Below, in pieces: positions 3,992 to 62,107 of a stretch of 64,000 bases of DNA. The stretch is from NCBI GenBank assembly GCA_944329195.1, contig CALVHX010000001.1, positions 3,562 to 67,561 on the forward strand. Reading direction: 5' to 3'. Every line of letters starts with the position of its first letter. The first letter of the stretch is position 1. Source of the stretch: an uncultured Bacilli bacterium. Its GTDB lineage: Bacteria; Bacillota_I; Bacilli_A; RF39; UBA660. The notes under the pieces were generated by a model, which worked only from the letters and a program-made list of their open reading frames with translations, ran no database searches and was not told the DNA's origin. Both the position numbers and the translations under genes were made by a program.

Positions 3992-6900
3992 ATGCAGGAA
4001 AAAATGAAAAAATTACTCGATCAGATTGGAATGAAAAACGATTTTCTAGAAAATAGTGATATTAAAAAAGTTTTTGTTTATGATAGTGATAAAACGTGGC
4101 ATTTCATAATAGAAAATGATGCTATTTTACCTCTTCATATCTATAATGAATTTTTAGATAAACTTAAATGTACATTTAGCGAGGTTAAAGAAATTAGACT
4201 TACTATCGTAGTAAGTAATGTTGATGATAAATACTTAGATGATTATTTTAGCATGCTTATAAATAAATTTAGTAATGAAAGTTATAAATATAGAGTCTTT
4301 TTGGATAGAACACTAAAAGTCACAGATAGTTGTTATGTATTTGAAGTTGATAATAAGGCTGAATATTCTTACTTGATAGAAAAAATTGAATATATTAATT
4401 CTCATTTACGTGATTTTGGATTTAATAAAAAAATTGAAATTGTCATAACTACAGATAGAGAGAAGGAATTACTTAATAGAATCGAAAGTGAAAAGATAAT
4501 GGAAATTCCTAATTCTTCTTTAGAAAGAAGTGTTAAGAATGAAATGAAAAAAGATGAAAAAAAGAGTTTTAGGCCTAAAAAAGATACTAGTGTTACTCCT
4601 ATTAAAGATATTTTATATGAGGTTGATAATATTACTATTGAAGGAATGATATTTGGAATAGAGATGTTTGAAGCAAAAAGTGGCTATAAAATTATTACAA
4701 TAAAAGTTACAGATAATAGTGATAGTATTTATGTCAAAATGTTTACTAAAGATGATGAAGAATATGCCATGATAAAGAAATTATTAAAAGAAGGCTCTTG
4801 GTATAACTTTTATGGGAAAGTGCAAATGGATAGATTTGCTAATGAACTTACTTTCACTACTAGGTATAAAGATGTTGAAAGAATTGAAGGCCCTCCTGTT
4901 CAGAAAATTGAAGATAACGAAGAAGTTAAAAGGGTCGAACTTCATGCTCATACAATGATGAGTCAAATGGATGGTATTACTAAAATAGACCTAAATAAAC
5001 ATACATGTGAACTAGTAAGTAAATGTATTGAAATGGGTTATAAAGGTGTTGCTATTACTGATCATAATGGTTGTCAGGCATTTCCTATCGCCTATGGTAT
5101 TATTTCTTCTTATAATAAAAAACAAGATGATCCTAGTAAGAAATTCAAAGGACTTTACGGTACTGAACTTACTTTGGTAGATGATACCGTAAACATTGTT
5201 ATTAGACCTGATGATAGAGATCTTGCTTCTTCGACATATGTAGTATTTGATACTGAAACTACTGGATTTAATGCCGGTGGTGGAGATGTTATGATTGAAA
5301 TAGGAGCTGTTAAAATTAAAGAAGGGAATATTATTGATAGATTTGATGAACTTATTGATCCTAAAAGACATATCCCAGATAGAATAACGGAGCTTACTTG
5401 TATTACTGATGAGATGGTTAAAGGAAAGGATGACGAAGAGACTGTAACAAAAAAGTTTTTGAAATGGGCCGGAGATTGTCCTATGGTTGCTCACAATGCG
5501 AAATTTGATATTTCTTTTATAGAAATGGCTATGAAAAAATATGATTTGGGAGAATTTAATAATACTGTTATCGATACTTTAGAACTTTCTAGAGCAATCG
5601 ATACGGGATATGCTAGACACAGTTTATCTGCTCTTGTTAAAAGATACAATGTTCCATGGGATGAAGATGCTCATCATAGAGCAGACTATGACGCCGAAGG
5701 AACCGCTCAAGTATTTTATAAGATGATTAGTAAGCTTACGATGCAAAATTTTAATAAAATAAGTGACTTAGATAAATTGATTTCAAAAGATGAAATATAC
5801 AAATTTGGTAGAACATATCATTTTAATGCCATTGCTTTAAATAAAAAAGGTCTTAAGAACTTATTTAAAATAATATCACTTGCTAATACTACCTATCTTT
5901 ATAAAACACCTAGAATACTTAGAAGTAAACTTAATGAACTTCGTGAGGGTCTTTTAATTAGTAGTGGCTGCTACGAAAGTGAAGTATTTATTGAAAGTAG
6001 AAGCAAAGAAGGAGAAGAGCTTACTAATATTATTAATTTTTATGATTTTGTTGAAGTACAGCCTCCAGAAGTTTATAATCATTTGATTCAAACTAGCGAT
6101 TTTAAAAATGAGGATGAACTTAAGGCGCATATTAAAAAAATTATTAATGCCACAAAAGAAGCTGGAAAAATTATTGTCGCTACTGGCGATGTGCATCATT
6201 TTAGAAAAGAAGATAAAATATATAGAGAGATTATTGTCAATCAAAAAGTTCCTGGTGGCGGAAGGCATCCTTTAGCAAAAAGTAGTATTACTAATATTCC
6301 ATCTCAACATTTTAGAACTACTAGAGAAATGCTAAATGATTTTGCATTTTTAGGAGAGGAATTAGCTTACGAAATTGTTGTCAGTAATACTAATAAAGTT
6401 TTAGAGATGGCTGATGAGATTGAAGTTATTATTGATACTGGTGGTATTCCTTTTTCTCCAAGGATTAAAAGTGATGATGGAAAATCCTATCTAGATTGTC
6501 CAAGTGTTGTTACTGACCTGGTATTTGCTAAAGCTAAAGATTGGTATGGCGAAAATTTACCACATAATATTGAGGAAAGAATTGCTACAGAATTATATGG
6601 AAATATTGTGTATAAATGTTGGGAAGAAAAGATTAAGGAAGAATATTCTGATCTTTCTACAAGTGAACTAGAAGAAAAATTATTTGAAAATTTACATAAA
6701 ACATTGGTAGAAGGATTTGATTGTGTTAAAGGTTTAGTAAAAGAATATGTTAAAAAACATTGGAGTGAAGAAGATGGCTTACTAGAAGATGAAACTATCG
6801 ATAAAAAAGTTAAAAAAGAACTTGGTGGTATTATTGGCGGTGGATTTGATCCGATATATTTGATTGCACAAAGATTGGTTAAACATTCTAACGATGATGG

Positions 6901-8614
6901 ATATTTAGTTGGTTCTAGAGGGAGTGTCGGTAGTAGTTTTGTTGCCACTATGATGGGAATTACTGAAGTTAATCCCCTTCCTGCCCACTATAGATGTCTG
7001 AACTGTAAAGCAAGTATCTTTAAAGATGAAAATGGAAAAGATTTGGGTGCTACTTATTCATGCGGATTTGACTTACCAGATAAGAAATGTCCTAATTGTG
7101 GCAGTGATCTTTATAAGGATGGACAAGATATGCCTTTTGCTACATTTCTGGGATTTAATGCTGATAAAGTTCCTGATATTGATCTTAACTTTTCTGCTTT
7201 GAATCAAGCTTCTGCACATGAATATACAAAAGTGTTGTTTGGCGTAGATAATGTTTATAGGGCGGGAACTATTGGTACTGTTGCAGAAAAAACTGCTTTT
7301 GGTTTTGTCAAGGGATATTTCGAAGATAAAGGAATTACTAACAAAAGAAATTGCGAGATAGAAAGATTGGCAATAGGTTGTACTGGAGTTAAAAGGACAA
7401 CTGGACAACATCCTGGCGGTATTGTTGTTGTTCCTGATTATATGGATGTGTTTGATTTTACTCCTTTTCAATTTCCTGCTGAAGATTCTAGTAGTGCATG
7501 GCGAACAACGCATTTTGACTATCATGCTATAGACCAAGATCTATTAAAACTGGATATTTTAGGGCATTCAGATCCAACACAGCTTAGATTGATTCAAGAG
7601 CTTTCTGGTACTGATGTGTTGAAAGTTCCTATGGATGATAAGGATACTATGAGTATTTTTACTTCTACGAAAGTCCTTGGAGTTACTAACGAGCAAATTA
7701 TGTGTGACACTGGTACTCTTGGTATACCTGAATTTGGTACACCATTTACTATTAGTTTAGTATATGAAACTAAACCAACTACCTTTGCTGAACTAATCAA
7801 GATATCTGGTCTTTCTCATGGTACTGATGTGTGGGTCGGCAATGCTCAAGAACTGATTAGAAAAAATATTGTTCCATTTAAAGATGTTATTGGTTGTCGT
7901 GATGATATAATGGTTTATTTAATGTATCGAGGTGTCGAACCAATAAAGGCGTTTAAAATAATGGAATTTGTTCGTAAAGGAAAAGCTAGTAAGGATGCCG
8001 AAACTTGGGCAAAACACAAGGAAACTATGAAAAAAGCGGGTATTGATGATTGGTTTATCGATAGTTGTTATAAGATTAAATATATGTTTCCAAAAGCACA
8101 TGCAGCAGCCTATGTCATTAGCGCATTTAGAATTGCTTGGTATAAAGTGCATATGCCTGTTTACTTTTATGCTAGCTGGTTCTCTACTAAAGCTACTGAT
8201 TTTAATATCGATGTCATGATAAAAGGATATGATGATATTAGGAACGCTCTTATAGAAATAGAAAATAAAGGATTCGAAGCTTCAAACCAAGAAAACGGAG
8301 TATCTGAATGTTTAAAAGTTGCTTTAGAAATGAGTGCTAGAGGAATTAAAATTGCTAAATATGATTTATATAAGAGTAGAGGGATGATATTTACTGTCGA
8401 AAATGATAATACTATTAATCCACCTTTTAAGGCTATTGATGGCTTAGGCGACGTCGTTGCTAAAAATATTGAAAATGAAGCTAAAAAAGCCCCTTTTATT
8501 AGTATTGAAGATTTTCAGACAAGATGTAAAGTATCGCAAACGCTTATTGAAAAAATGCGTTCGATGGGTATTTTTGATGGTATGCCTGAGACTAGTCAGT
8601 TAACTTTATTTTAA
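3992..8614 (+). CDS. polC: DNA polymerase III alpha subunit, PolC type (with 3'-5' exonuclease domain)
   Basis: 1540 aa; PHP domain (HAHTMMSQMDG), DnaQ-like exonuclease (VVFDTETTG...HNAKFDISF), polymerase core and zinc module CLNC...CPNC. Confidence 0.9.
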   Translation: MQEKMKKLLDQIGMKNDFLENSDIKKVFVYDSDKTWHFIIENDAILPLHIYNEFLDKLKCTFSEVKEIRLTIVVSNVDDKYLDDYFSMLINKFSNESYKYRVFLDRTLKVTDSCYVFEVDNKAEYSYLIEKIEYINSHLRDFGFNKKIEIVITTDREKELLNRIESEKIMEIPNSSLERSVKNEMKKDEKKSFRPKKDTSVTPIKDILYEVDNITIEGMIFGIEMFEAKSGYKIITIKVTDNSDSIYVKMFTKDDEEYAMIKKLLKEGSWYNFYGKVQMDRFANELTFTTRYKDVERIEGPPVQKIEDNEEVKRVELHAHTMMSQMDGITKIDLNKHTCELVSKCIEMGYKGVAITDHNGCQAFPIAYGIISSYNKKQDDPSKKFKGLYGTELTLVDDTVNIVIRPDDRDLASSTYVVFDTETTGFNAGGGDVMIEIGAVKIKEGNIIDRFDELIDPKRHIPDRITELTCITDEMVKGKDDEETVTKKFLKWAGDCPMVAHNAKFDISFIEMAMKKYDLGEFNNTVIDTLELSRAIDTGYARHSLSALVKRYNVPWDEDAHHRADYDAEGTAQVFYKMISKLTMQNFNKISDLDKLISKDEIYKFGRTYHFNAIALNKKGLKNLFKIISLANTTYLYKTPRILRSKLNELREGLLISSGCYESEVFIESRSKEGEELTNIINFYDFVEVQPPEVYNHLIQTSDFKNEDELKAHIKKIINATKEAGKIIVATGDVHHFRKEDKIYREIIVNQKVPGGGRHPLAKSSITNIPSQHFRTTREMLNDFAFLGEELAYEIVVSNTNKVLEMADEIEVIIDTGGIPFSPRIKSDDGKSYLDCPSVVTDLVFAKAKDWYGENLPHNIEERIATELYGNIVYKCWEEKIKEEYSDLSTSELEEKLFENLHKTLVEGFDCVKGLVKEYVKKHWSEEDGLLEDETIDKKVKKELGGIIGGGFDPIYLIAQRLVKHSNDDGYLVGSRGSVGSSFVATMMGITEVNPLPAHYRCLNCKASIFKDENGKDLGATYSCGFDLPDKKCPNCGSDLYKDGQDMPFATFLGFNADKVPDIDLNFSALNQASAHEYTKVLFGVDNVYRAGTIGTVAEKTAFGFVKGYFEDKGITNKRNCEIERLAIGCTGVKRTTGQHPGGIVVVPDYMDVFDFTPFQFPAEDSSSAWRTTHFDYHAIDQDLLKLDILGHSDPTQLRLIQELSGTDVLKVPMDDKDTMSIFTSTKVLGVTNEQIMCDTGTLGIPEFGTPFTISLVYETKPTTFAELIKISGLSHGTDVWVGNAQELIRKNIVPFKDVIGCRDDIMVYLMYRGVEPIKAFKIMEFVRKGKASKDAETWAKHKETMKKAGIDDWFIDSCYKIKYMFPKAHAAAYVISAFRIAWYKVHMPVYFYASWFSTKATDFNIDVMIKGYDDIRNALIEIENKGFEASNQENGVSECLKVALEMSARGIKIAKYDLYKSRGMIFTVENDNTINPPFKAIDGLGDVVAKNIENEAKKAPFISIEDFQTRCKVSQTLIEKMRSMGIFDGMPETSQLTLF

Positions 8615-12408: not shown

Positions 12409-12819
12409 ATGAATGATGAATGCTTTAGAAAATCTCTCATCGAAATTACTGATAAAAATTTATTAAATAACTTTGTCAATGAAATTTTTGGTTATGATTT
12501 AAAAAATGATCAATACGTTTATATTCAATATAAGATTGTTCATGAAAACATTGTAATTAATATATATGATAATAGTTATAATAATAGATTTAAAGCTTTT
12601 ATTTTTACAACTAATAGTAATTTAGAAAGCAATGGAGATATTAAATATATTAATATTAATCATTGCTATAATTCTTATAAAAATAATGTAATTGATAGTA
12701 AATTGGACTTAATTGGTTCATTACTTATTTCAAAAAGTAATGATGAAAAAAAAGAGATTATTTCTAAGCTATTCGATAATGATATAAAAAATATTTTATT
12801 TAAATACTTTATTACTTAA
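12409..12819 (+). CDS. hypothetical protein (136 aa, Asn/Ile-rich, no recognisable domain)
   Basis: ORF only. Convergent with tmcAL and very AT-rich. Confidence 0.3.
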   Translation: MNDECFRKSLIEITDKNLLNNFVNEIFGYDLKNDQYVYIQYKIVHENIVINIYDNSYNNRFKAFIFTTNSNLESNGDIKYININHCYNSYKNNVIDSKLDLIGSLLISKSNDEKKEIISKLFDNDIKNILFKYFIT

Positions 12820-15609: not shown

Positions 15610-17565
15610 TTATATACTCTTATCATCTTTATTTTTTATTGTTTTAAAATAATTGTACTTCAGTGTTAAATCGTTTTTTCTTATAAGATAATTTATATAA
15701 TAATTTTTATCTTCGAGATTTATTTGATTAATATTTTTATTATTTGTAACTATTCCTCCATCGACATAAACATTTCCGTCATACCAAGAGTAATCACTAA
15801 AGAAGACAATACCTTGATAATTGTTATTTAGGGCATCAGCACCAATATAGTAATTCGGATGATATTCATTACCAAACAAATTTAATAATGTTGGTAAAAT
15901 ATTTAATTGTGATGTTACTTCTTTTACTGTTTTTTTATCAATATTGTTTTTCCATATGAAGAAAGGAGTTTTGTTTATTAAATTATTATTTGTCTCTTTA
16001 TATTTTTCTAAAATTGTTTGATCAGATAAAGTATACAAATAATGATCGGTAAACACCGCTATTACAGTGTTATCAAGAATACCTTCTTCTTCTAATTTTT
16101 TCAATAGTAATTCAATCATGTAGTCTGTTTCTTTAGCTTGTCTTCTAGCACAATCTTCTTCTGTCATAATAGGAAGTATAGTGTCTTCTGGTAACTCTTC
16201 AAGATTGTTTTCTTTTTTTATATCTTCTTCAACTAATATTTTACATACTCCTCTTTCAGTAGTAAACGGCATGTGAGCAGAATAAGTTATAATATAATTG
16301 ACAAATTTTTCTTCACTGAACATTTTTTCAGAAAATTCTTCATTAAGTATTAGTTCTCGGTCTAACGTATAACTTTCATCTGTATACGTTTCTAGATCTT
16401 GCAGTCCATAGTAATTGTCATATCCCCAATTTTTGTAGTTTGTTCCGCGCGAATAGTACTCACTAGTATTCATATGAAAAGCATTAACTGTATATCCTTC
16501 TTTTTTAAAAAGATGGGCCAAAGAATATGTAAATTCATTCTTGTTAAAAGAATATGCATTTTGTGTGTACGATAATGGTGTTATGAATCCTGTATTAACT
16601 GCAAATTCAGAATTAAATGTTGAACCGCCTCCATTATAATATGAATAATGATTGGAAAAATTAATAGAATTGTTCATCATGTTATACAGCGTTGGGGTAT
16701 CTTCTTCCGTTATAAGCCAATTATCTATTCCTTCTAACTGGATTATTATTAAATTATTATCTTTAAACATACCTGTATATTTATTTGAATAGTTTTCTTC
16801 TGTACTACTATATACTTCTTCTAAAAAAGTTAATTCTTCTTCGTTAACTGTTTTCTTTGACTTGATAAAAGTAATATAAAAATTTCTTACTGTATACTCA
16901 TATAGACCACTTATTCGCATACTTTTATTATTATCATTAAAATTTATATATATATTACGTGGATTTCTCCATGTGCTCCACGTTAATTCTGAATCCGGGC
17001 TTCCTAATAAAAATGGTATTATAAAATGAGCTATAAGAAATATAAAAAATACTCTTATTATATTTTTTAAATTAGTTTTCTTTCTTTTCGGAAAATATTT
17101 AATTCCTACTATAAAGGACATTATTATTATTAGTGAAGAAATATAAACCCATATATTACAATTTACAATGGCGTCAAATATATATTCTGAACCTTCACTT
17201 GTCATTAAAAGCAAGCTAAAATCAAAAAATGAATCAGTCATAGAATAATATATATTGTTTGTTAAAAAGAAAAGAAAGAAAAGAAAAAAGAAGAATATAT
17301 AGTAAATTTTTCCCTTTTTTTTCTCTGTAAATAAACATATTCCTAATATTAAAAAAACCCATACTAGAGTAAATAAATTAGGTACTAAACTTAATATGTG
17401 GAAAAAGTTTATTTTACTTCCTATTATCCTAGTAATAATATCCATTAATATAAATGGCAGTGCTACTAATAATATATAATAATATTTACCTAACAATTTT
17501 TTAATTGTGGAAATTATTTTCATATTTTTTACTTTTTTTACTACTTTTTTCAAGACAATCACCAT
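15610..17565 (-). CDS. ltaS: LtaS-family lipoteichoic acid synthase / sulfatase-domain membrane protein
   Basis: Five N-terminal TM helices, then an extracellular sulfatase domain (LEGIDNWLI, YNGGGSTFNSEFAVNTG). Confidence 0.7.
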   Translation of the reverse strand: MVIVLKKVVKKVKNMKIISTIKKLLGKYYYILLVALPFILMDIITRIIGSKINFFHILSLVPNLFTLVWVFLILGICLFTEKKKGKIYYIFFFFLFFLFFLTNNIYYSMTDSFFDFSLLLMTSEGSEYIFDAIVNCNIWVYISSLIIIMSFIVGIKYFPKRKKTNLKNIIRVFFIFLIAHFIIPFLLGSPDSELTWSTWRNPRNIYINFNDNNKSMRISGLYEYTVRNFYITFIKSKKTVNEEELTFLEEVYSSTEENYSNKYTGMFKDNNLIIIQLEGIDNWLITEEDTPTLYNMMNNSINFSNHYSYYNGGGSTFNSEFAVNTGFITPLSYTQNAYSFNKNEFTYSLAHLFKKEGYTVNAFHMNTSEYYSRGTNYKNWGYDNYYGLQDLETYTDESYTLDRELILNEEFSEKMFSEEKFVNYIITYSAHMPFTTERGVCKILVEEDIKKENNLEELPEDTILPIMTEEDCARRQAKETDYMIELLLKKLEEEGILDNTVIAVFTDHYLYTLSDQTILEKYKETNNNLINKTPFFIWKNNIDKKTVKEVTSQLNILPTLLNLFGNEYHPNYYIGADALNNNYQGIVFFSDYSWYDGNVYVDGGIVTNNKNINQINLEDKNYYINYLIRKNDLTLKYNYFKTIKNKDDKSI

Positions 17566-17755
17566 CTCCTCTTGATTATACTATATATTTATTTTTTTGT
17601 AAATAGACATATTTGATTGTGTAAACATGTGTTTTTAAAGGATAAAATAGATATCTTTTGTTTTGAATAAGCTTTGAGTAAAAGAAATATAAAAATTATT
17701 TATTTTTTACTAATTTTCTGATATAATTTATTTAGAATAGAAGGAAGGGGTATTT

Positions 17756-19516
17756 ATGTTTAAAGAAATACTTGCCATAACTAAAAATTATGCTATTGTT
17801 AAAATTGATGGTGTCGTCAGTGATGACTTACTTAATTTAAATGTTATTTTTGAAGAAACAAACAAAAAAATATTGGGGGAAATTGAAGAAATAATTAATA
17901 ACGAAGCTAAAATTAATTTTTTGGGAGAATTTCAAGGTAATAGATTTTATGATGGAATCATACGAAAACCTAGTGTATCCTCTTCTATTAGGATAATCAA
18001 TGCTGACGAATTAAAAGAACTTACTGGTAACAATGATCCTTATAGTATGATGCTTGGGCTTTCTCCTCTATATAATAATTCTCCAATAAAAATAAACATC
18101 GATGATATGTGGAGTAATCATAGTGCAATTTTTGGTAACACTGGGTCTGGTAAGACTTATGGTGTTGCTAGACTTGTACAAAATTTATTTACAATGTCTA
18201 ATTACATTCCTTTTAATAGCATAATCTTTATATTTAATAATACAGATGAATATGATAATGCTTTTAATTCTATTAGTAATTATAATTTAAATTTTAATTA
18301 TAAGTTATTTACTACTGATACTGAAAGTAGTAATAATTTACTTAAACTTCCTTTGTGGCTTCTATCTGTTGATGATTATGCTAATATTTTAGATGTTAGC
18401 GAGTATTCTCAAATTATGATTATTGAAAAAATGCTTGTCTATGTTTCTCTCTTTGCAAAGAACGATGAAGAAAGTAATAAATATAAAAATCATTTAATTG
18501 CTAAGGCAATTGTTTCTGTTTTGTATTCTAATCAAGTTTCTGCTAGGATAAGAGATCAAATTTTTTCTATTTTAACTGATTGTTATACGAAGGAATTAAA
18601 TTTAGATGTTGAAGTACCCGGTGTTGGGTATACAAGATCATTTAGAAAGTGTTTTGATATTGATAGCAAAGGTGAATTTGTCGAAAGGATTCTCATTACG
18701 GAATATATTAATAAATTTATTGACAATACTATCGAGTGGAAAGAAGAGTATACCCCTACTTATTTTACGATAGATGATTTAGAGATTGCACTTAATTTTA
18801 CGCTAATCTCTGAAGGTCTATTACTAAATGAAAAGTCATATAGTGAGGCTACTGCTTTAAAAGTTAAACTTCATACTATTGCTAATAGTTCGATGAGAAA
18901 ATTTTTTGAGGTTGAAAATTTTATTTCAATAAATGATTTTATATCAAGTTTAATTCTAATTGGCAATAATAAAAGGGCACAAATTATAAATTTTGTTCTT
19001 GAAAGTATTGATGATAGATTTGCTAAAAATTTAGTGAAGGTATATTCTAGGTTATTATTTAATTTTTTAAAAACTTTACCTACGAGAGGTAGTATGCCTA
19101 TTCACATTATGCTTGAAGAGGCACACAGATATGTACAAAAAGATAACGATATTAATATTCTAGGATATAATATTTTTGAAAGAATAGCTAAAGAGGGAAG
19201 AAAATTTGGTGTGGTTTTAGATTTAATTACTCAAAGACCAACCGAACTTTCTGAAACTGTTATATCACAATGTAGTAACTTTTTAATTTTTAAAATTAAC
19301 CATCCTAGTGATCTGGAGTATATTGAAAAAATGGTTCCTAACATTAGCAGTGATGTTATAGAAAAACAAAAGTCCCTACAATCTGGTACTTGTGTTGCTT
19401 TTGGTAGAATGATGAAAATACCAATGATTGTAAAAATGGAAATACCTAATCCTCCTCCACAAAGTTCTAATGCTAAAGTATTTGATAAGTGGATGATACA
19501 GTGGAAAAATAACTAA
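17756..19516 (+). CDS. HerA-like (DUF87/COG0433) FtsK-HerA superfamily ATPase, stand-alone
   Basis: N-terminal HAS-barrel-like region, Walker A GNTGSGKTY, Walker B IMLEEAHRY, and the ITQRPTEL sensor motif typical of HerA/VirB4/FtsK. Confidence 0.65.
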   Translation: MFKEILAITKNYAIVKIDGVVSDDLLNLNVIFEETNKKILGEIEEIINNEAKINFLGEFQGNRFYDGIIRKPSVSSSIRIINADELKELTGNNDPYSMMLGLSPLYNNSPIKINIDDMWSNHSAIFGNTGSGKTYGVARLVQNLFTMSNYIPFNSIIFIFNNTDEYDNAFNSISNYNLNFNYKLFTTDTESSNNLLKLPLWLLSVDDYANILDVSEYSQIMIIEKMLVYVSLFAKNDEESNKYKNHLIAKAIVSVLYSNQVSARIRDQIFSILTDCYTKELNLDVEVPGVGYTRSFRKCFDIDSKGEFVERILITEYINKFIDNTIEWKEEYTPTYFTIDDLEIALNFTLISEGLLLNEKSYSEATALKVKLHTIANSSMRKFFEVENFISINDFISSLILIGNNKRAQIINFVLESIDDRFAKNLVKVYSRLLFNFLKTLPTRGSMPIHIMLEEAHRYVQKDNDINILGYNIFERIAKEGRKFGVVLDLITQRPTELSETVISQCSNFLIFKINHPSDLEYIEKMVPNISSDVIEKQKSLQSGTCVAFGRMMKIPMIVKMEIPNPPPQSSNAKVFDKWMIQWKNN

Positions 19517-19552
19517 AGGAAAGGCTTATAAATAAAGTCTTGCCTTTTTTTT

Positions 19553-19669
19553 CGACAATATCAACAGGTCTGTTGAAAAAAATATAAACACTTGTTATTT
19601 AAAGTTATCAACATCATTGTTGATAACTTTAATATTTCCTTTAATTATATATGCTTATGTTGTTGATAA
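19553..19669. promoter_or_regulatory. oriC left DnaA-box cluster (TTATCAACA / ATATCAACA variants, including an inverted pair at 19605-19627) plus the dnaA promoter
   Basis: ATATCAACA at 19556-19564, TTATCAACA at 19605-19613, TGTTGATAA at 19619-19627, TGTTGATAA at 19661-19669. The TTGATT...TATAAT promoter follows. Confidence 0.7.
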
Positions 19670-19777: not shown

Positions 19778-21145
19778 ATGAACACAGAAATGTTATGGAA
19801 TAGTTTTTTAAGTAGAATAAAAGAACGAATCTCTCCTTTATCTTATGATACTTGGTTTAAAGATACTAAACTTTATAAAATTGAAAAAAATATAGCTATC
19901 ATTATCGTACCAATGATTCTTCATAAAAAACATTTGGAAGAAAACTATAAAGATGAAATAGAAGAAATTTTTAATTCTATTACAGGAACAAATTTTTCCT
20001 TTCAGTTTAAACTAGAAAACGAACTGACTGAAAACAATAATAAAGAAGATTTAAATGGTAATATAATTAATACGATTGGTGGAGTACCTTATCAAAGCAG
20101 TATAAGTGCTAATTTAAAAAGCGAATATACTTTTGATAACTTTATTGTCGGTGATTCTAATAGGTTTGCTTTTACAGCGGCGAGAGCAGTGGCAGAAAAA
20201 CCTGGAAAAGCTTATAATCCCTTATTTTTATATGGAAAAAGTGGTCTTGGTAAAACACATTTAATGCATTCTATTGGTAACTATATAATTGAAAATTCTA
20301 ATAAAAGAGTTTTATATGTTTCTAGCGAACAATTTGTAAATGACTACATTACTGCGGTAAGAAATAATGACAAATCTAATTTTGATAGGATTGATTCGTT
20401 TAAAAGTAAATATCGAAATATTGATGTGCTAATTATTGATGATATACAATTTTTAGGTACCGCTACTAAAGGACAAGAAGAATTTTTTCATACTTTTAAT
20501 CAACTACATGATTCTAATAAACAAATAATTATTGCTTCTGATAGATCTGTCGATGATTTAAAAATGCTTGAAGATAGATTAATTACGAGATTTAATTGGG
20601 GACTTACCGCAAATATTACACCTCCTGATTTTAATTTAAGAGTGAGTATTATTAAGAAAAAAATATCTCATCAAGAAGCAGCAGAAGATATTCCTTTGGA
20701 AGTTATCGAATATATTGCTAATATCAATGACTCTGATGTTAGACAGCTAGAGGGTGCTATTACTAGGGTTTTTGCTTATTCTCTAATGATGAATAAAGGA
20801 AAAGTTACTTTAGATGTAGCTGTTGAAGCATTAAAAGATAAAGTTAATGATAGGAGTGTTTATAAAAATGATGTTCATAGAATACAAAGAATTGTATGTG
20901 AATATTTCAAAATTGACATAGAAGATTTAAAGGGAAAGAAGAGGAGTAAAGATGTAAATTACCCAAGACAAATTGCTATTTATCTTTGTAGAATTATGAC
21001 TAATGAATCTTTTCCTAAGATGGGAACTTATTTTGGTGGCAGGGATCATTCAACTATTATAAGTGCATATCAAAAAATAGAAAAAGATCTAAAGATAAAT
21101 AGTCAGTTACAAACGGTAATAAAAGAACTCAAAAGTAAGATATAG
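19778..21145 (+). CDS. dnaA: chromosomal replication initiator DnaA
   Basis: AAA+ Walker A GKSGLGKTHL and the C-terminal DNA-binding domain (KDVNYPRQIAIYLCR...GGRDHSTI). Confidence 0.95.
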   Translation: MNTEMLWNSFLSRIKERISPLSYDTWFKDTKLYKIEKNIAIIIVPMILHKKHLEENYKDEIEEIFNSITGTNFSFQFKLENELTENNNKEDLNGNIINTIGGVPYQSSISANLKSEYTFDNFIVGDSNRFAFTAARAVAEKPGKAYNPLFLYGKSGLGKTHLMHSIGNYIIENSNKRVLYVSSEQFVNDYITAVRNNDKSNFDRIDSFKSKYRNIDVLIIDDIQFLGTATKGQEEFFHTFNQLHDSNKQIIIASDRSVDDLKMLEDRLITRFNWGLTANITPPDFNLRVSIIKKKISHQEAAEDIPLEVIEYIANINDSDVRQLEGAITRVFAYSLMMNKGKVTLDVAVEALKDKVNDRSVYKNDVHRIQRIVCEYFKIDIEDLKGKKRSKDVNYPRQIAIYLCRIMTNESFPKMGTYFGGRDHSTIISAYQKIEKDLKINSQLQTVIKELKSKI

Positions 21146-22385: not shown

Positions 22386-22549
22386 AAATTTAATTTATTA
22401 TTTTGTTTTTAACTATTAGCAATTTTTCTTGTTAATAGTTTTTATTTTTTTATATTTTTTTATATATTCGACAAAAAGAGACTTTTTTCGACATTTTTTT
22501 GTGTTTTAATATTTTCTACATATTTTTATATGTGGAAAGGGGGATTTTT

Positions 22550-23005
22550 ATGGATAATTACATTATTAATGAAAATACTTTATGTTTTACTCAAGATATT
22601 GATAATACTGATGAAATTCTTGTGATAGAGAAGAAAAGAAAATTTAATATTAAAATGAAATGTCTTAAGTTTATCAACAAAAGCTGTTGTTGTTATGGTC
22701 ACTCGTATAATGTACAAAGACAAATTATTATTGATAATTTTAATTTTTATATTAAAACTCCTATAGTTGTATCTGAGTATAACATGTTTATTTTCTTTCC
22801 TACATCTTCTCCAAGTTCAAATGAATGTATTTGGATTTCTTATAATAATGTTGATAGGTATGTTAAGGAAGATAATTATACTAAAATTTATTTTAAGGGT
22901 GGAAAGATTTTAAATATTAGTGCTAAATATACTACGATTGATAGTCAAATAACAAAATGTATTAAGATAGAACGTTATTTAAATAATTTAAAGGTAAAAA
23001 GGTAG
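22550..23005 (+). CDS. comK: ComK-family competence transcription factor-like protein
   Basis: MFIFFPTSSPSSNECIWISYNNV aligns with B. subtilis ComK IFLFPTLSSTRPQCGWISHVHV, with similar overall length and upstream cysteines. RBS GGAAAGGGGGA before ATG 22550. Confidence 0.55.
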   Translation: MDNYIINENTLCFTQDIDNTDEILVIEKKRKFNIKMKCLKFINKSCCCYGHSYNVQRQIIIDNFNFYIKTPIVVSEYNMFIFFPTSSPSSNECIWISYNNVDRYVKEDNYTKIYFKGGKILNISAKYTTIDSQITKCIKIERYLNNLKVKR

Positions 23006-28769: not shown

Positions 28770-28836
28770 ATTAGTAAACAAATGTTCGCTATTGCTAAAA
28801 TTCTTGAAATATATGTTAAAACATGTTATTATACTG

Positions 28837-28919
28837 TTGATACAACATTAATTAGTGGAACCAAGTCAGGATCGGAAGATAGCAGCTTTAACACTTTATT
28901 AATGTGTGTATCTTTTTTT
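28837..28919 (+). ncRNA. ffs: signal recognition particle RNA (small 4.5S/scr type)
   Basis: AAGUCAGGAUCGGAAGAUAGCAGC matches the SRP domain IV consensus AGGUCAGGUCCGGAAGGAAGCAGC. The 5' and 3' arms are complementary (GATACAACATTAATTAGTG / CACTTTATTAATGTGTGTATC). Promoter TTGAAA(28804)-17-TATTAT(28827), T7 run at the 3' end. Confidence 0.6.
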
Positions 28920-28965: not shown

Positions 28966-28981
28966 TGTTTCACGTGGAACA
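28966..28981. promoter_or_regulatory. parS-like site 1 (TGTTTCACGTGGAACA)
   Basis: One mismatch from the ParB/Spo0J consensus. Confidence 0.65.
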
Positions 28982-29075
28982 TAAAAATATATAGTGTTGT
29001 GGGAATTAATTTTAATTATAAAATTTAAAATTTGAAACAAATTATTTTATTAATATTTAAATAGATAACGTCTAA

Positions 29076-29091
29076 TGTTCCACGTGAAACA
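29076..29091. promoter_or_regulatory. parS-like site 2 (TGTTCCACGTGAAACA)
   Basis: Identical to the B. subtilis parS consensus. Confidence 0.7.
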
Positions 29092-29188
29092 TGTCTTTTA
29101 AAATTAAAATTGGGTGATTATAAAAATATAATCAGTTTAGAAAAAGTAGTTTAAAAATAGATTTTATTATTTGCGTATAATCAATTCA

Positions 29189-29204
29189 TGTTTCACGTGG
29201 AACA
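29189..29204. promoter_or_regulatory. parS-like site 3 (TGTTTCACGTGGAACA), start of duplicated unit 1
   Basis: Followed by the DnaA-box-like TTATCAACA at 29208-29216. Confidence 0.65.
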
Positions 29205-29389
29205 TATTATTTATCAACAGTTTAACATATCTTTTAATGGAAAGTGTTTTAAAAAAATATCAAGATAAAAGTATATCAAAATTTTAATTTATTTTTTTCT
29301 TAATGTATAACTTTAAATTTTTAAATAGTTTATGTTATTTAACTTGAAATTTATAATAAATAAGATTTATTTAAATTTAGATAAATACA

Positions 29390-29405
29390 TGTTCCACGTG
29401 GAACA
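29390..29405. promoter_or_regulatory. parS-like site 4 (TGTTCCACGTGGAACA), centre of the perfect 22-bp palindrome ACATGTTCCACGTGGAACATGT
   Basis: Perfect palindrome, two symmetric changes from the consensus. Confidence 0.65.
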
Positions 29406-29482
29406 TGTATTTATAACTATTGTATTAAAAAAATACTTAATATGTGTATGTTTGAATATTTACTTATAATTAATTAGTTTAA

Positions 29483-29498
29483 TGTTTCACGTGGAACA
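29483..29498. promoter_or_regulatory. parS-like site 5 (duplicate of site 3)
   Basis: Start of tandem unit 2. Confidence 0.65.
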
Positions 29499-29683
29499 TA
29501 TTATTTATCAACAGTTTAACATATCTTTTAATGGAAAGTGTTTTAAAAAAATATCAAGATAAAAGCATATTAAAATTTTAATTTATTTTATTCTTAATGT
29601 ATAAGTTTAAATTTTTAAATAGTTTATATTATTTAACTTGAAATTTATAATAAATAAGATTTATTTAAATTCAGATAAATACA

Positions 29684-29699
29684 TGTTCCACGTGGAACA
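29684..29699. promoter_or_regulatory. parS-like site 6 (duplicate of site 4)
   Basis: Within tandem unit 2. Confidence 0.65.
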
Positions 29700-29772
29700 T
29701 GTATTTTTAACTGTATTAAAAAGAATTTAATATGTGTATGTTTGAATATTTACTTATAATTAATTAGTTTAA

Positions 29773-29788
29773 TGTTTCACGTGAAACA
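29773..29788. promoter_or_regulatory. parS site 7 (TGTTTCACGTGAAACA, exact consensus)
   Basis: Exact 16-bp palindrome. Confidence 0.7.
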
Positions 29789-29875
29789 TTAATAATATTA
29801 ACAGTAATCAGTCATTTATTGATATATTAGTATAATTATATTGTTGTAAATAGGTATTTTATATGGTAATATGTT

Positions 29876-29891
29876 TATGTTTCACGTGAAA
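29876..29891. promoter_or_regulatory. parS site 8 (exact consensus), immediately upstream of and overlapping the tadA 5' region and RBS
   Basis: Exact 16-bp palindrome ending 4 nt before the GGAG RBS of tadA. Confidence 0.7.
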
Positions 29892-29909
29892 CATGGAGTT
29901 TGTGATAAT

Positions 29910-41048: not shown

Positions 41049-41099
41049 ATTTATAAAAATTATTGAAATGTTTGTAAATGTATGGTAGAATTGTTTTTG

Positions 41100-41320
41100 T
41101 AAAGCGAAGAAGGAAAGAGTAATAGATTAGTATTTTATAGAGAGTCTATGATGGTGTAAAGTAGATAAAGAACGCTATTACAAATGGTTCTGGAGCAGTT
41201 ATATCTAATAGGTATAGACGGTGGTTACGTTATAGCTTAATGAGTGTATAATTTATAAAATAAGGTGGTACCACGGATTTTAGTTCGTCCTTTGGTTCTA
41301 TCTTATTTTTTTTGGAGGGA
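41100..41320 (+). promoter_or_regulatory. T-box riboswitch leader upstream of dut-metG
   Basis: T-box sequence AATAAGGTGGTACCACGG (consensus AATTAGGGTGGTACCGCGG) around 41262-41279. Stem-I-like AGTA and AGAGAG elements are present. A T-run lies just before the RBS. Promoter TTGAAA-17-TAGAAT upstream. Confidence 0.5.
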
Positions 41321-41329
41321 TATTATAGT

Positions 41330-41791
41330 ATGAGAAAATTTGAAAAGATTAGTTTTGAACAGTTTAGTAAGGATATTAGTAATGATAAAGAATTGTATTT
41401 GGGTTATGAGATGCCTATTAGGGCGACTAAGTATGCTGCTGGATATGATTTTTATGCTATTGAGGGATTTGAGATTAAGCCTGGTGAGATTAAGAAAATA
41501 CCTACGGGAATAAAAGCTAGTATGGAAGATGATGATGTATTACTTCTAATTGAAAGAAGCAGTATGGGATTTAAATATAATGTGAGGTTAACTAATCAAG
41601 TTGGAGTAATTGATGCGGATTATTATAATAATCAAGATAATGAGGGACATATGTGGATTAGTTTACAAAATGAAGGTAAAGAAAATTATGTGGTAAATAA
41701 AGGTGAAGTTTTTTGTCAAGGTTTGTTTATTAAATATTTAAAAATTGATAATGAAGCTAATGACTTCGTAGATAGAACAAGTAATTATTAG
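41330..41791 (+). CDS. dut: dUTP diphosphatase-like (Dut)
   Basis: dUTPase motifs AAGYDFYA, IPTGIKA, IERSSMG, GVIDADYYN. Lacks a clear C-terminal motif 5. GGAGGGA RBS before ATG 41330. Confidence 0.6.
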   Translation: MRKFEKISFEQFSKDISNDKELYLGYEMPIRATKYAAGYDFYAIEGFEIKPGEIKKIPTGIKASMEDDDVLLLIERSSMGFKYNVRLTNQVGVIDADYYNNQDNEGHMWISLQNEGKENYVVNKGEVFCQGLFIKYLKIDNEANDFVDRTSNY

Positions 41792-41803
41792 GAGATGATT
41801 TTA

Positions 41804-43339
41804 ATGAAGGAAAAGAAAAAATTTTATGTTACAACGCCTATATATTATCCTAGTGCTAATTTTCATATAGGTCATTGCTATACAACAATAATAGGGGATG
41901 CTATTGCTAGATATAAGAGACTATGTGGTTATGATGTGTTTTATTTAACTGGAACTGATGAACATGGTCAAAAAATACAGAAAAAGGCTGAGGAAGCAGG
42001 GGTTAGTCCACAGGAATATGTTGATAAAATAGTTGCAAATGCGAAAGATCTATGGAAGACTTTAAATATTAGTTATGATAAATTTATTAGAACTACTGAT
42101 AGTGAACATGTCTTATGTGTCCAGAAAATATTTAAAAAGCTATACGATAATGGAGATATTTACAAAGGTGTTTATAAAGGACTATATTGTACGCCTTGTG
42201 AATCTTTTTGGACGGAAACGCAGCTTGTAGATGGAAAGTGTCCTGATTGTGGAAGAGAGGTTTCAGAAGTATCAGAGGAAGCTTATTTTTTTAAGTTATC
42301 TAAATATCAAGATAGGTTAATGAAGTATTATGAAGATAATCCTACTTTTATAGAACCTCAATCAAGAAAAAATGAGATGATTAATAACTTTATAAAACCT
42401 GGACTAGAAGATTTATGTGTGTCTAGAACAAGTTTTAATTGGGGAATTCCTGTTTCTTTTGATGATAAACATGTTGTATATGTTTGGTTAGATGCTCTTA
42501 GTAACTATATCTCTGCTTTAGGTTATTTAACTGAAAATGACGATCTATTTAAGAAATATTGGCCTTGTGATTTACATATTGTTGGTAAAGAAATTGTTAG
42601 ATTTCATACTATTGTTTGGCCAATTATGCTTATGGCATTAGACCTACCACTTCCAAAAAAGGTATTTGGTCACGGTTGGCTTGTGATCAATGGTGGTAAA
42701 ATATCAAAAAGTATTGGTAATTATAAGGATCCTAGAAATTATGTCGATACTTATGGTGTCGATGCGGTTAGGTATTTTGTTCTAAGAGAGGTCCCATTTG
42801 GAAGTGATGGCTCTTTCTCAGAGGATGCTCTTATAAATAGGACAAATGGTGATTTAGCTAATATATTGGGCAATTTAGTTAATAGGACTATTGGTATGGC
42901 TAATAAGTATTTTGATGGTATTATTGAGGATAAAAAAACTAGTGAAGATTTAGATAATAAATTAAAAGTAGAAGCTATTGAACTTAAAGATAAAGTGGAT
43001 AAATATATGGAAAAACTTGAAATATCTAAAGCCTTGGAGGTTATTTTTGATCTACTTAGATCTTGTAATAAATATATAGATGATACAATGCCATGGATAC
43101 TTGCCAAAGATGAAAATAAGAAAGATAGGCTATCTACTGTTTTATATAATTTAATGGAATGTATTCGAATTGCTACTGTATTACTTCAAGCTTTTATTCC
43201 TGATACTGCAAGTAAGATTTTTTATCAAATTAACACTAATATTATTTCTTATGATAGTATTTCTTCTTTTGGTGGATATGAATCTGGAAATAAGGTTAAT
43301 AAATCTGAAGTTTTATTTCAAAGAGTGGAGTATAAGTAA
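41804..43339 (+). CDS. metG: methionyl-tRNA synthetase (short form, no C-terminal tRNA-binding domain)
   Basis: HIGH motif ANFHIGH, zinc knuckle CTPCESF...CPDCG, KMSKS motif KISKS. Confidence 0.9.
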   Translation: MKEKKKFYVTTPIYYPSANFHIGHCYTTIIGDAIARYKRLCGYDVFYLTGTDEHGQKIQKKAEEAGVSPQEYVDKIVANAKDLWKTLNISYDKFIRTTDSEHVLCVQKIFKKLYDNGDIYKGVYKGLYCTPCESFWTETQLVDGKCPDCGREVSEVSEEAYFFKLSKYQDRLMKYYEDNPTFIEPQSRKNEMINNFIKPGLEDLCVSRTSFNWGIPVSFDDKHVVYVWLDALSNYISALGYLTENDDLFKKYWPCDLHIVGKEIVRFHTIVWPIMLMALDLPLPKKVFGHGWLVINGGKISKSIGNYKDPRNYVDTYGVDAVRYFVLREVPFGSDGSFSEDALINRTNGDLANILGNLVNRTIGMANKYFDGIIEDKKTSEDLDNKLKVEAIELKDKVDKYMEKLEISKALEVIFDLLRSCNKYIDDTMPWILAKDENKKDRLSTVLYNLMECIRIATVLLQAFIPDTASKIFYQINTNIISYDSISSFGGYESGNKVNKSEVLFQRVEYK

Positions 43340-44519: not shown

Positions 44520-44561
44520 TGTTACAATTAATATGCTTAAAATATTAATGAGGTGAAAGAA

Positions 44562-45251
44562 ATGAAAAAAATGGCAGCTAAACTAATAACTATTTCATCG
44601 CAAATATTAGTAGTTTGTCTGTTTTTGATAGTATTATTTAATAATAATACTAAACAAAGTAAAACTATAATTGTAGATAATAATAATTTTAATAAAATGG
44701 CTGATTCGGTGTCTTCGCTTTTTAAAGAGGAAGAAATGATACTTGATTCGGTTGATGATAGTATTATTGATCCTTTATTGGATGAGGATGATGTTGTAGT
44801 TGAACAGGAGGAAGAAGAAAAAGAAGAGGTCGTTACAGAAGTAGAAGATGAGATTTCTCCTACCGTGGAAGAGACACCAAATTTATCAATCGATAAAGAA
44901 CCTATTTCTGTTGTCACTGGTAATTTAACTGGGTATGGTCCTGACTGCAATGGATGTAGTGGTATTACTAATAGTGGATATGATGTTTCTAATACTATAT
45001 ATTATAATGATCATGAATATGGTGATGTTAGAATATTAGCAGCGGATCCTTCGTTTCCCCTGTATTCGATTATAAGAGTTAGTAATGTTCCTAATTTGGA
45101 TTCTTTTATTGCAATTGTTCTAGATAGAGGTGGAAATGTTGGATACGGTAAGGGTACTTTATTTGATTTACTTTTTGCAACAGAGAAGGATCCAAACATT
45201 TTAAGTCTAACTGAAAATGTAACATTTGAACTTTTAAGAAGTGGTAAATAA
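44562..45251 (+). CDS. 3D-domain (RlpA/MltA-like) cell-wall protein, YabE/YuiC-like
   Basis: N-terminal TM anchor, acidic linker, C-terminal 3D domain (DPSFPLYSIIRV...IVLDRGGNVGYGKGTLFDLLF). Confidence 0.6.
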   Translation: MKKMAAKLITISSQILVVCLFLIVLFNNNTKQSKTIIVDNNNFNKMADSVSSLFKEEEMILDSVDDSIIDPLLDEDDVVVEQEEEEKEEVVTEVEDEISPTVEETPNLSIDKEPISVVTGNLTGYGPDCNGCSGITNSGYDVSNTIYYNDHEYGDVRILAADPSFPLYSIIRVSNVPNLDSFIAIVLDRGGNVGYGKGTLFDLLFATEKDPNILSLTENVTFELLRSGK

Positions 45252-56297: not shown

Positions 56298-57326
56298 TTA
56301 TGGTATTAATCCCCAGCCTGTTACGACGTATCTTCCTCCTTGTCTTTTGGCCGCTGCTGGAGGATTATTATATAATTCTCCATTGACTGTTAATGATGAT
56401 GATTGTCCACCATCTAAATTGGCAGCATTATATGCTCCATATTTTAACAATATATCCACCATATCTTGTAGTGAAGCTCCATTAATGTAATTTTCTCCAT
56501 CTATTACGAGAAACATAATAATGCCATCTTTTGTTTGAGCAATTGCCACTCTTGGTGCTTGCCCCCATGGATCTCCAACTATTTCGAGCGGTTTTCCATT
56601 TACAATAAGGAAAGGTCCAAAAACTAAGCCATCGTAAACTCCGGCTTCTAATGCCTCATTGGCAGTAGAATTGGACATGAGTTTTAGTTTTCCATCTTTA
56701 GTCATTCCAATAATGTTGTCTCTAGAAGTATCTGCTGTGTCCATCCCCCAAGTTATTTCTCCGTCTTGTATTACTGGTCCAATAGGAATGTCGGAACCGT
56801 ATCCAAAATCAACAAAACCACCACCATTTATGCATACAACACCACCGTAGCGATCGCACATTGTTGTTACTCGTTCTCCTTTTCCTCCAACATTAAATTG
56901 TTTAGTAGAAATGAGTCTTACTTTATCTGGTTCATAGATAGCGACTAAATATCCTTTTGATGAACCTACTTTAATGTCTATTATTTTATATAAATCGTTA
57001 CCTTCATCTCTAGTGAATAGTTCTTCCTCATATTCATCTTTGTATTTTGTCTTTTCTTTGGTATTTATTACAACATCATCAGTATTTGCATCTTCAGTAA
57101 ATGATATAAAATAGTTACTGTCCATTATTCTTTGAACTGTTTTTTCACTATAAAATATATTGGCTAGGTATTGATGGTTCATTGTCTTCATAGCGGTTGT
57201 CACATATAAATTTCGTATCTTATCATATGGCCCGTACATTATAAAGAAACATGCCGCTACTATTATGTCTAAAAATATAAATAATATGGTTGTTTTATAT
57301 ATTTTTTTCTTTTTTCTTTTATTCAT
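56298..57326 (-). CDS. phosphodiester glycosidase (NAGPA/DUF2233)-family membrane-anchored protein
   Basis: N-terminal TM. C-terminal YNAANLDGGQSSSLTVNGELYNNP is typical of the phosphodiester glycosidase family. Confidence 0.55.
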   Translation of the reverse strand: MNKRKKKKIYKTTILFIFLDIIVAACFFIMYGPYDKIRNLYVTTAMKTMNHQYLANIFYSEKTVQRIMDSNYFISFTEDANTDDVVINTKEKTKYKDEYEEELFTRDEGNDLYKIIDIKVGSSKGYLVAIYEPDKVRLISTKQFNVGGKGERVTTMCDRYGGVVCINGGGFVDFGYGSDIPIGPVIQDGEITWGMDTADTSRDNIIGMTKDGKLKLMSNSTANEALEAGVYDGLVFGPFLIVNGKPLEIVGDPWGQAPRVAIAQTKDGIIMFLVIDGENYINGASLQDMVDILLKYGAYNAANLDGGQSSSLTVNGELYNNPPAAAKRQGGRYVVTGWGLIP

Positions 57327-58804: not shown

Positions 58805-58999
58805 GTGAAATATAATTTGAACGATGTTGTTGTATTAAAAAAAACTCATCCTTGCGGGTGTAATGAATTTGAAGTGATTAGATTAGGAGTGGATATTAAG
58901 GTTAAGTGTAGTAAGTGTGGAAGAGTTATTATGATTCCTCGAGTTGAACTTAATAAAAAAATTAAAAAGGTGATTGAATATGAAAAAAAAGAAAATTAG
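58805..58999 (+). CDS. DUF951-like zinc-ribbon small protein
   Basis: CGC...CSKCG cysteine pairs in 64 aa. GTG start. Confidence 0.4.
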   Translation: MKYNLNDVVVLKKTHPCGCNEFEVIRLGVDIKVKCSKCGRVIMIPRVELNKKIKKVIEYEKKEN

Positions 59000-60515: not shown

Positions 60516-60600
60516 ATAAATTATTTATAATTAATAAAGAAAAACTATTGAAAGTAAAAGTAAACTATGTTATAATTCTTATTGTAAGATAGGAGGATGT

Positions 60601-61998: not shown

Positions 61999-62107
61999 AA
62001 ATATGACTATAGACTTATCTTTAGTCTTCTTTGGACAGTATTTAAGATGGTATTGTTAAATACTGTCTTTTTTGCTATAATGTATAGGTAAGAAAGAGGT
62101 GATATAA

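Follow-up and report, generated by a model that had tools for sequence, protein, structure and literature searches.

We analysed a 64,000-nucleotide stretch of a contig from an uncultured Bacilli bacterium (the window hereafter), in which a gene for a HerA-family ATPase without a partner gene, here called herA, lies next to dnaA. The gene occupies positions 17756-19516 on the + strand, starts with ATG and encodes 586 amino acids (aa), exactly as an original prediction made from the sequence alone had it, and its assignment draws on the open reading frame (ORF), on Pfam, PADLOC and PDB sequence matches, and on a structural model with a fold search. On the upstream side, 190 bp away, a divergent gene encodes an LtaS-like sulfatase-family membrane protein (15610-17565, - strand), as had been proposed and as its Pfam Sulfatase match confirms. 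On the 3' side a 261-bp spacer leads to dnaA (19778-21145, + strand; identified by its ORF and by Pfam families at orthologous loci), followed by dnaN-comK-recF-gyrB-gyrA. We found an extended -10 element (TGATATAAT, 17719-17727, + strand) and a strong Shine-Dalgarno (SD) sequence (GAAGGAAGGGG, 17740-17750, + strand) ahead of the start codon, and in an alignment of herA upstream regions the TTTGnTATAAT motif and the SD are kept without variation across eight sister species, which marks this as a conserved, presumably constitutive promoter of the sigma-A type. A predicted intrinsic terminator (hairpin plus U8, 19515-19552, + strand) closes the gene; its fold (dG -10.5 kcal/mol, z = -3.1) was equalled in stability by none of 200 shuffles. 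Judged by these signals, herA is a self-contained transcription unit with which dnaA is not co-transcribed.

The assignment to the HerA/DUF87 family was borne out by profile, sequence and fold searches. The protein matches Pfam PF01935 (DUF87, "Helicase HerA central domain") at 64.1 bits against a cutoff of 23.2, and ten PADLOC HerA models below 1e-30, the best being PDLC04102 at 1e-98. A sequence search of the PDB gave matches to HerA chains from 1.8e-42 to 2.6e-19, those of DUF4297-HerA ranking first (9c1m, 1.8e-42; 8xau, 4e-36), those of SIR2-HerA next (8wiv, 8j4u, 8yho) and archaeal ones last (4d2i, 9x1l). The protein lies far below the cutoffs of the narrower NCBIfam equivalogs, whether for the "anti-phage-associated helicase HerA" (150.4 bits against 850 and 138 against 800) or for archaeal HerA of double-strand-break repair (97-116 bits against 800-970, helicase_HerA among them at 97 against 970). 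The match to Pfam PF01580 (FtsK_SpoIIIE) is marginal (24.3 bits against a cutoff of 24) and spans only 52 residues around the P-loop. No membrane segment is predicted. An AlphaFold2 model built from a 35-sequence alignment (37-91% identity) reached a predicted local distance difference test score (pLDDT) of 82.3 and a predicted template-modelling score (pTM) of 0.81. The predicted layout comprises an N-terminal beta-barrel, a split RecA-like core, an inserted helical bundle and a C-terminal tail. In a Foldseek search of the PDB with this model, the top 50 matches were all HerA chains, with TM scores of 0.54-0.73 normalised to the query.

All elements expected of such an enzyme are found along the + strand, including the three motifs named in the original prediction. 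The model has the anticipated HAS-type beta-barrel at the N-terminus (aa 1-95, 17756-18040), with seven beta-strands at aa 2-80. The Walker A motif GNTGSGKTY (aa 127-135, 18134-18160) is invariant in the family alignments, and its K133 corresponds to K157 of 8XAU. It is followed by the helical-bundle insertion subdomain (aa 216-400, 18401-18955), modelled as helices at 217-400 with a beta-hairpin at 286-295. The Walker B motif IHIMLEEAHRY (aa 449-459, 19100-19132) carries E454/E455, invariant in the family and aligned with E426/E427 of 8XAU. Equally invariant are EGRKFG, whose R482/K483 align with the trans-acting arginine-finger pair R455/K456 of 8XAU, and ITQRPTEL (aa 491-498, 19226-19249), with Q493 as sensor, the two together spanning 19193-19249. 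K157, E426/E427 and R455/K456 are functional residues of 8XAU (PMC11291478). A C-terminal PNPxPxS...W motif (19445-19492; P564, P566, P568, S570 and W579 invariant) aligns with the C-terminus of 9c1m HerA, where the corresponding "hook" docks onto the neighbouring subunit of DUF4297-HerA (PMC11291478). In the insertion subdomain, a basic hairpin (G291-Y-x-R294-x-x-R297) is also invariant in the family; that it is the counterpart of the DNA-contacting R284/K287 of 8XAU is only a guess, made without superposition. All 151 partner-less ORFs have Walker A, 150 have the QRP motif and 147 have EGRKxG. Nine motif-variant ORFs were inspected; they showed conservative swaps (e.g. EESH) or artefacts of pattern anchoring, and all nine kept the acidic pair of Walker B. 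By its motifs and predicted fold, the protein is a complete, catalytically intact HerA-family ATPase.

The absence of an adjacent partner gene, another claim of the original prediction, held up at every scale. No plausible small partner ORF was found in either spacer flanking herA, and a Pfam scan of 42 of the 47 window ORFs (three ORFs at 58974-63205 fall outside it) found no NurA, SIR2 or DUF4297 (Cap4-like nuclease) gene. The genes named in the window so far are housekeeping ones (SUF, PolC, PolA, Fpg, a TmcAL-type nucleotidyltransferase, GT2, DnaX, RecR, HolB, Mfd, MetRS, MreB, LysRS, ClpC and others), with PolC, PolA, Fpg, DnaA, DnaN, RecF, GyrB and GyrA named from precomputed Pfam hits on orthologues. 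None of the three partner types was found at ~160 related loci either. A hidden Markov model (HMM) of the SIR2 partner, run on the six-frame ORFs of 176 sequences (2.27 Mb), matched all SIR2-linked loci and only those, with zero matches in the window, in L001-L095 and in L113-L175. Several other candidates were considered and dropped. The operon-like neighbours of herA in relatives (Ldh, an acyltransferase, a deacetylase, a PP-loop enzyme, Bax1-I, PFOR, an amino-acid kinase) are metabolic or housekeeping and differ from species to species; two more, in L035 (414 aa) and L083 (238 aa), have no Pfam match. Four loci (L043, L068, L072, L083) hold two HerA paralogues within a few kb, arranged as a tandem pair in L072; in the other three loci the second copy groups with P0124 in a separate subclade, none of whose neighbours is conserved. 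Some longer relatives bear disordered S/T/N/P-rich tails of 170-360 aa, C-terminal in P0121, P0123 and P0129 (the last with degenerate ATPase motifs) and N-terminal in P0126, with EHNPALDFG occurring three times, LV[STN]F repeats and a conserved C-terminal ...FI[ED]NM. As these extensions are low-complexity tails and not domains, they were dropped as fusion clues to a partner, and they could be tethering or partner-binding peptides. Three window ORFs are without a Pfam match (12409-12819, 136 aa; 44553-45251, 232 aa; 57326-58672, 447 aa), and the 136-aa one lies between fpg and the TmcAL-type gene in all sister loci.

Homology searches, each with at least ~8000 candidates, outlined a lineage-restricted family. 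An exhaustive search of 50%-identity representatives gave 177 clusters at E <= 1e-30, in which full-length matches reached as low as ~33% identity. A scan of one genome per species found the gene, at 49-86% identity, in at least 80 species-level genomes, each of them low in guanine plus cytosine (GC). The carriers are metagenome-assembled genomes (MAGs) of uncultured gut "Bacilli/Tenericutes/Mollicutes", including Ca. Faecisoma merdavium (at NCBI, Mycoplasmatota incertae sedis) and also a circular genome of 1.2 Mb (JBAMOY010000001.1), and they are small (1.2-1.7 Mb). A protein identical to the window HerA is encoded in 85 sample blocks (contigs of up to 1.68 Mb), with the same surroundings every time.

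Within the clade of at least 72% identity, herA lies directly 5' of a spacer with DnaA boxes and dnaA in 19 of 22 informative loci. Two further loci carry an insertion at this point (L009, 2047-5043, 3 kb with four minus-strand ORFs; L010, 11759-12880, 1.1 kb with one ORF), which makes the junction between herA and the DnaA boxes an insertion site, and in L015 there is no dnaA within 4.3 kb of herA. On the upstream side we found either LtaS on the minus strand, in the window's genus, or an mnmG-mnmE-jag-yidC-rnpA-rpmH block on the minus strand. The idea that herA takes the place of rpmH-rnpA-yidC-jag has to be abandoned, as sister species keep those genes and have herA inserted between rpmH and the DnaA boxes. 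In deeper clades the surroundings differ. Adjacency to dnaA is found in none of the 62 loci of the 49-56% identity clade, where ~29 loci show RNase J on the minus strand followed by ftsY-small transmembrane (TM) gene-ylxM-herA-(x)-ffh with gaps of 3-19 bp, and others show ecfA-ecfA-ecfT-truA-herA-GH31-x-leuS, herA(+) between rny(-) and recA(-), or further layouts. The 38% identity clade, which includes "Firmicutes bacterium CAG:582", has an LtaS-like gene (-), ~165 bp and herA (+), with no dnaA; this divergent pair was seen in L088-L091 (Sulfatase gene at 5795-7837), with ~30% identity to the window LtaS-like gene. A different LtaS paralogue (24-26% identity) stands co-directionally 68 bp upstream of herA in L010 (7910-9931) and L011 (1920-3944). 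Since adjacency to dnaA is confined to the clade of at least 72% identity, the origin position reflects lineage synteny and is not evidence of an origin function. The place of herA beside dnaA and the DnaA boxes is a matter of family-level synteny rather than of a functional link.

The relatives outside this family point to where it came from. The nearest outside clade, of the P0133-P0135 type, shares 33-39% identity with the window protein, and in 14 of its 15 informative loci a SIR2_2 gene (374-446 aa) abuts or overlaps the herA homologue, with restriction-modification genes nearby. In a neighbour-joining (NJ) tree of 130 sequences the partner-less genes all fall in one clade. Bootstrapping with 52 taxa supports this clade at 100/100 and its sister relationship to the P0134-type SIR2-linked clade at 100/100, with a P0150-type SIR2-linked clade falling outside both. 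By this phylogeny, the herA family appears as a descendant of the HerA subunit of SIR2-HerA anti-phage systems. With the partner-less genes in a single clade that lies inside the SIR2-HerA systems, one loss of SIR2 is the simplest and a probable history. The putative loss coincides with an N-terminal region shortened by 20-60 aa before Walker A, which starts at aa 127-134 in partner-less proteins, at 148-173 in the P0134 type and at 179-190 in the P0150 type; three N-terminal insertions are confined to P0133-P0135. It is at the N-terminal region that the effectors of solved HerA systems dock (PMC11291478). The partner-less loci have a uniform GC content of ~27%, and the SIR2-linked sister loci range from 28 to 50%, a spread expected for mobile defence islands. 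A phage origin of the family was rejected: IMG/VR viral contigs hold no partner-less member, and the two relatives found there (673 and 681 aa; ~30% identity) each follow immediately on a SIR2_2 gene and are SIR2-HerA.

The gene is also under strong purifying selection. Compared with seven sister loci, HerA shows a nonsynonymous divergence (dN) of 0.05-0.15 and a ratio to synonymous divergence (dN/dS) of 0.05-0.12, close to that of DnaA (0.035-0.083) and below those of DnaN (0.08-0.14), LtaS (0.09-0.13), Fpg and RecF (0.21-0.38), all these ratios being approximate because dS is ~1, near saturation. Values above 1 were frame artefacts of mapping high-scoring segment pairs to codons and were left out. 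The ranking by dN is robust and agrees with the percentage identities, and across loci the identity to the window protein tracks that of DnaA. The intact motifs and a dN/dS of ~0.05-0.12 rule out a decaying remnant or pseudogene.

We therefore rank a housekeeping role as most likely, given the lineage-wide retention, the DnaA-like constraint, the core-gene setting, the constitutive promoter and the lack of an effector, and propose, with a probability of roughly 0.55, that herA encodes a domesticated defence motor now serving in genome maintenance, with an unlinked partner or none. Since the protein retains all the elements for catalysis and oligomerisation, we take it to be a DNA-pumping ring ATPase; by analogy with characterised HerAs we infer that it forms hexamers, acts on DNA and fulfils a housekeeping role. 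In the proposed scenario, the HerA subunit of a SIR2-HerA anti-phage system would have lost its SIR2 effector once, and the N-terminal effector-docking region would then have been shortened. In a lineage of uncultured low-GC gut Bacilli ("Tenericutes-like" MAGs), the partner-less gene would have become fixed in the chromosome as a single gene, transcribed constitutively and held under strong constraint. Its product may serve the maintenance of the host genome, for example by processing DNA ends or broken forks, with an activating partner encoded elsewhere, as for Deinococcus HerA with RecJ, or with none needed. The original prediction had named a conserved housekeeping gene of known function as one finding that would speak against its reading; conservation and a housekeeping-like setting are what we observed, but no known function comes with them.

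Several points weigh against this proposal. Characterised HerAs are nearly inert alone (PMC11291478, PMC11472057), so that an enzyme working entirely on its own would have no precedent, and neither the window nor the related loci yielded a partner of the window HerA. Its closest characterised relatives are all defence proteins. LexA/Cheo boxes occur upstream of herA in 8 of 88 loci, near background, and regulation of herA by the SOS response was dropped as an idea. All genomes in the comparison are MAGs, and the core-gene status is inferred from gene-positive genomes, without a denominator of gene-less ones. The tree is a distance-based NJ tree in which several tips are known by protein id alone, and dS is near saturation.

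The best-surviving alternative, which we nevertheless consider unlikely, is that the protein is still an anti-phage ATPase, acting with an unlinked effector or alone, for example by depleting ATP or by pumping or stripping invading DNA. The orphan defence ATPase of the original prediction finds support here in its ancestry, the family being sister to (and nested within) SIR2-HerA. In addition, the best profile and structure matches are the HerAs of defence systems, the catalytic motifs are intact, and degradation of ATP by HerA has been proposed to aid defence (PMC11472057). Present-day defence fits the loci less well. The score against the anti-phage equivalog is far under its cutoff (150 against 850), no SIR2, DUF4297 or nuclease gene occurs in the window or at the ~160 related loci, and the lineage-wide, DnaA-like retention under a constitutive promoter goes together with conserved housekeeping synteny instead of defence islands. 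The uniformly low GC of this lineage-restricted family likewise contrasts with its SIR2-linked sister loci, at 28-50% GC beside restriction-modification genes.

Domestication could also have gone further. It is conceivable, if doubtful, that the immune motor was exapted as an essential, partner-independent chromosome-maintenance ATPase of this reduced-genome gut lineage, replacing a lost FtsK/SpoIIIE-type translocase or AddAB-type end processor, and that in the window clade it is perhaps tied physically and functionally to the origin region.

We regard as less probable again a lineage-specific replication or segregation factor, that is, an FtsK/SftA-like translocase or an origin motor replacing a lost canonical factor, which the original prediction had considered in view of the position of the gene. 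Of 22 informative loci in the window clade, 19-21 do have herA next to the DnaA boxes and dnaA, inserted on the rpmH side of the boxes; its constraint is DnaA-like in genomes of 1.2-1.7 Mb, and a conserved array of eight parS sites lies ~9.5 kb downstream. This reading of the position is nevertheless not supported beyond the clade, as dnaA adjoins herA at none of 62 loci in the 49-56% clade, nor in the 38% clade; herA is also transcribed separately from dnaA, and the protein has neither a membrane anchor nor an FtsK gamma-type DNA-recognition domain, its FtsK_SpoIIIE match being marginal. A role in envelope or membrane-protein biogenesis on a non-DNA substrate, suggested by the neighbours (the LtaS-like sulfatase, FtsY/YlxM/Ffh, YidC), by the divergent LtaS-like gene in both the window and the 38% clades with the other paralogue in L010 and L011, and by the tight ftsY-TM-ylxM-herA string of ~29 loci, is very improbable, as action on such substrates is not known for any enzyme of the HerA clade, no membrane segment is predicted in the protein, reduced genomes make almost any neighbour a housekeeping gene, neighbours differ between clades, and the basic arginine-finger and insert residues matching DNA-translocating HerAs are conserved.

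The origin itself had been placed downstream of herA by the original prediction. Between herA and dnaA lies a cluster of three DnaA-box-like sites (TTATCAACA; 19599-19669), two of them within a 15-bp palindrome. In 21 of 21 clade loci the herA-dnaA spacer contains 1-12 boxes per 200-580 bp, against a background of ~0.6 per kb, and upstream of herA there are 0-1 per locus. The GC skew at third codon positions (GC3 skew, + strand) is +0.47 for + genes and +0.43 for - genes to the right of dnaA, and weaker to the left, at +0.13 and -0.04, but without inversion of sign, so that the assignment of the origin rests on the DnaA boxes alone. The large left-flank genes (PolC, PolA, SUF) are all directed towards dnaA, and the skew changes near 17.7-21 kb. 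Two explanations offer themselves: oriC lies away from dnaA in this genome, or the left flank was transposed as a block fairly recently.

Further observations concern the region downstream. The eight parS sites (TGTTNCACGTGNAACA, with 0-1 mismatch) are found at 28966-29893 in a non-coding stretch of ~950 bp, between the signal recognition particle (SRP) RNA (28836-28918) and a tadA-like deaminase gene, ~9.5 kb downstream of herA; ~1.5 matches would be expected by chance in the whole window even at three mismatches. Two DnaA-box-like sites (TTATCAACA) lie within the array, and in sister loci 1-5 parS sites occupy the corresponding position, directly behind gyrA, before the sequence ends. A comK-family gene (22499-23005) stands between dnaN and recF, a position kept throughout the clade of at least 72% identity, with ComK identity down to 32-39% in its more distant members. 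Across L001-L008 and L065 (~16.5-21 kb, locus coordinates), GyrB/GyrA identity to the window is bimodal (92-95%/86% in L003, L006 and L008 versus 69-70%/66-68% in L001, L004 and L007), and HerA and DnaA vary smoothly (83-91%), which suggests allelic replacement or recombination of gyrBA. Finally, a T-box leader (99 bits, 41098-41295) lies directly 5' of a dUTPase-family ORF (41312-41791) that abuts metS (41795-43339), an uncommon gene to head an aminoacyl-tRNA synthetase operon under T-box control.

To our knowledge, every HerA studied so far is the motor of a two-part machine, with NurA, SIR2 or DUF4297, and is almost inert alone, and in the literature searched we found no description of a partner-less HerA derived from SIR2-HerA. 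If our proposal is true, the family would clearly exemplify a move from defence into housekeeping, opposite in direction to the reported "capture" in which defence systems took up cellular HerA/FtsK domains. It would also provide a natural test of whether a HerA ring can work alone or through other activators. It also calls for caution in the annotation of defence systems, since PADLOC-type HerA models match the window gene at 1e-98.

Among known systems, FtsK/SpoIIIE belong to the same superfamily of pumping ATPases, as the marginal P-loop match reflects, but they have membrane, linker and gamma domains, whereas the window protein has a HAS barrel and a helical insert and falls outside that clade. 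HerA-NurA (Sulfolobus 4D2I, Thermococcus 9X1L, Deinococcus, Thermus HepA) shares the ring translocase architecture, yet is a more distant relative (4.7e-27 and 2.6e-19), and no NurA gene, which in such systems often comes with Mre11/Rad50, adjoins the window herA. Thermus HepA nonetheless sets an example of a HerA that is kept throughout a bacterial genus and has phenotypes in repair and DNA transfer (PMC5448004), and Deinococcus HerA is an example of one that works with an unlinked nuclease, RecJ (PMC4663267). Characterised HerAs are hexameric translocases of double-stranded DNA, nearly inactive until a partner docks on the HAS face (PMC11291478, PMC5448004, PMC11472057). DUF4297-HerA (9C1M, 8XAU, 8ZIQ) is the best PDB match by sequence (1.8e-42) and by fold, with nearly the same length (585 versus 586 aa) and a common C-terminal hook motif; identity is only ~20-23%, however, no DUF4297 gene lies near the window herA, and without its partner this HerA forms a split spiral that hardly hydrolyses ATP (PMC11291478). 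SIR2-HerA (Paenibacillus sp. 453MF, 8WIV/8WLD; E. coli Nezha, 8J4U) has the same fold, domain order, Walker A and B, arginine-finger and QRP motifs, and is the phylogenetic sister or parent group of the window family. In these systems the SIR2 and HerA ORFs overlap, and Paenibacillus HerA bears a C-terminal arm domain of ~120 aa (PMC11472057); the window gene has no SIR2 gene and its product no such arm. The window protein further differs in its shorter N-terminal region, its housekeeping synteny in place of a defence island and its DnaA-like constraint.

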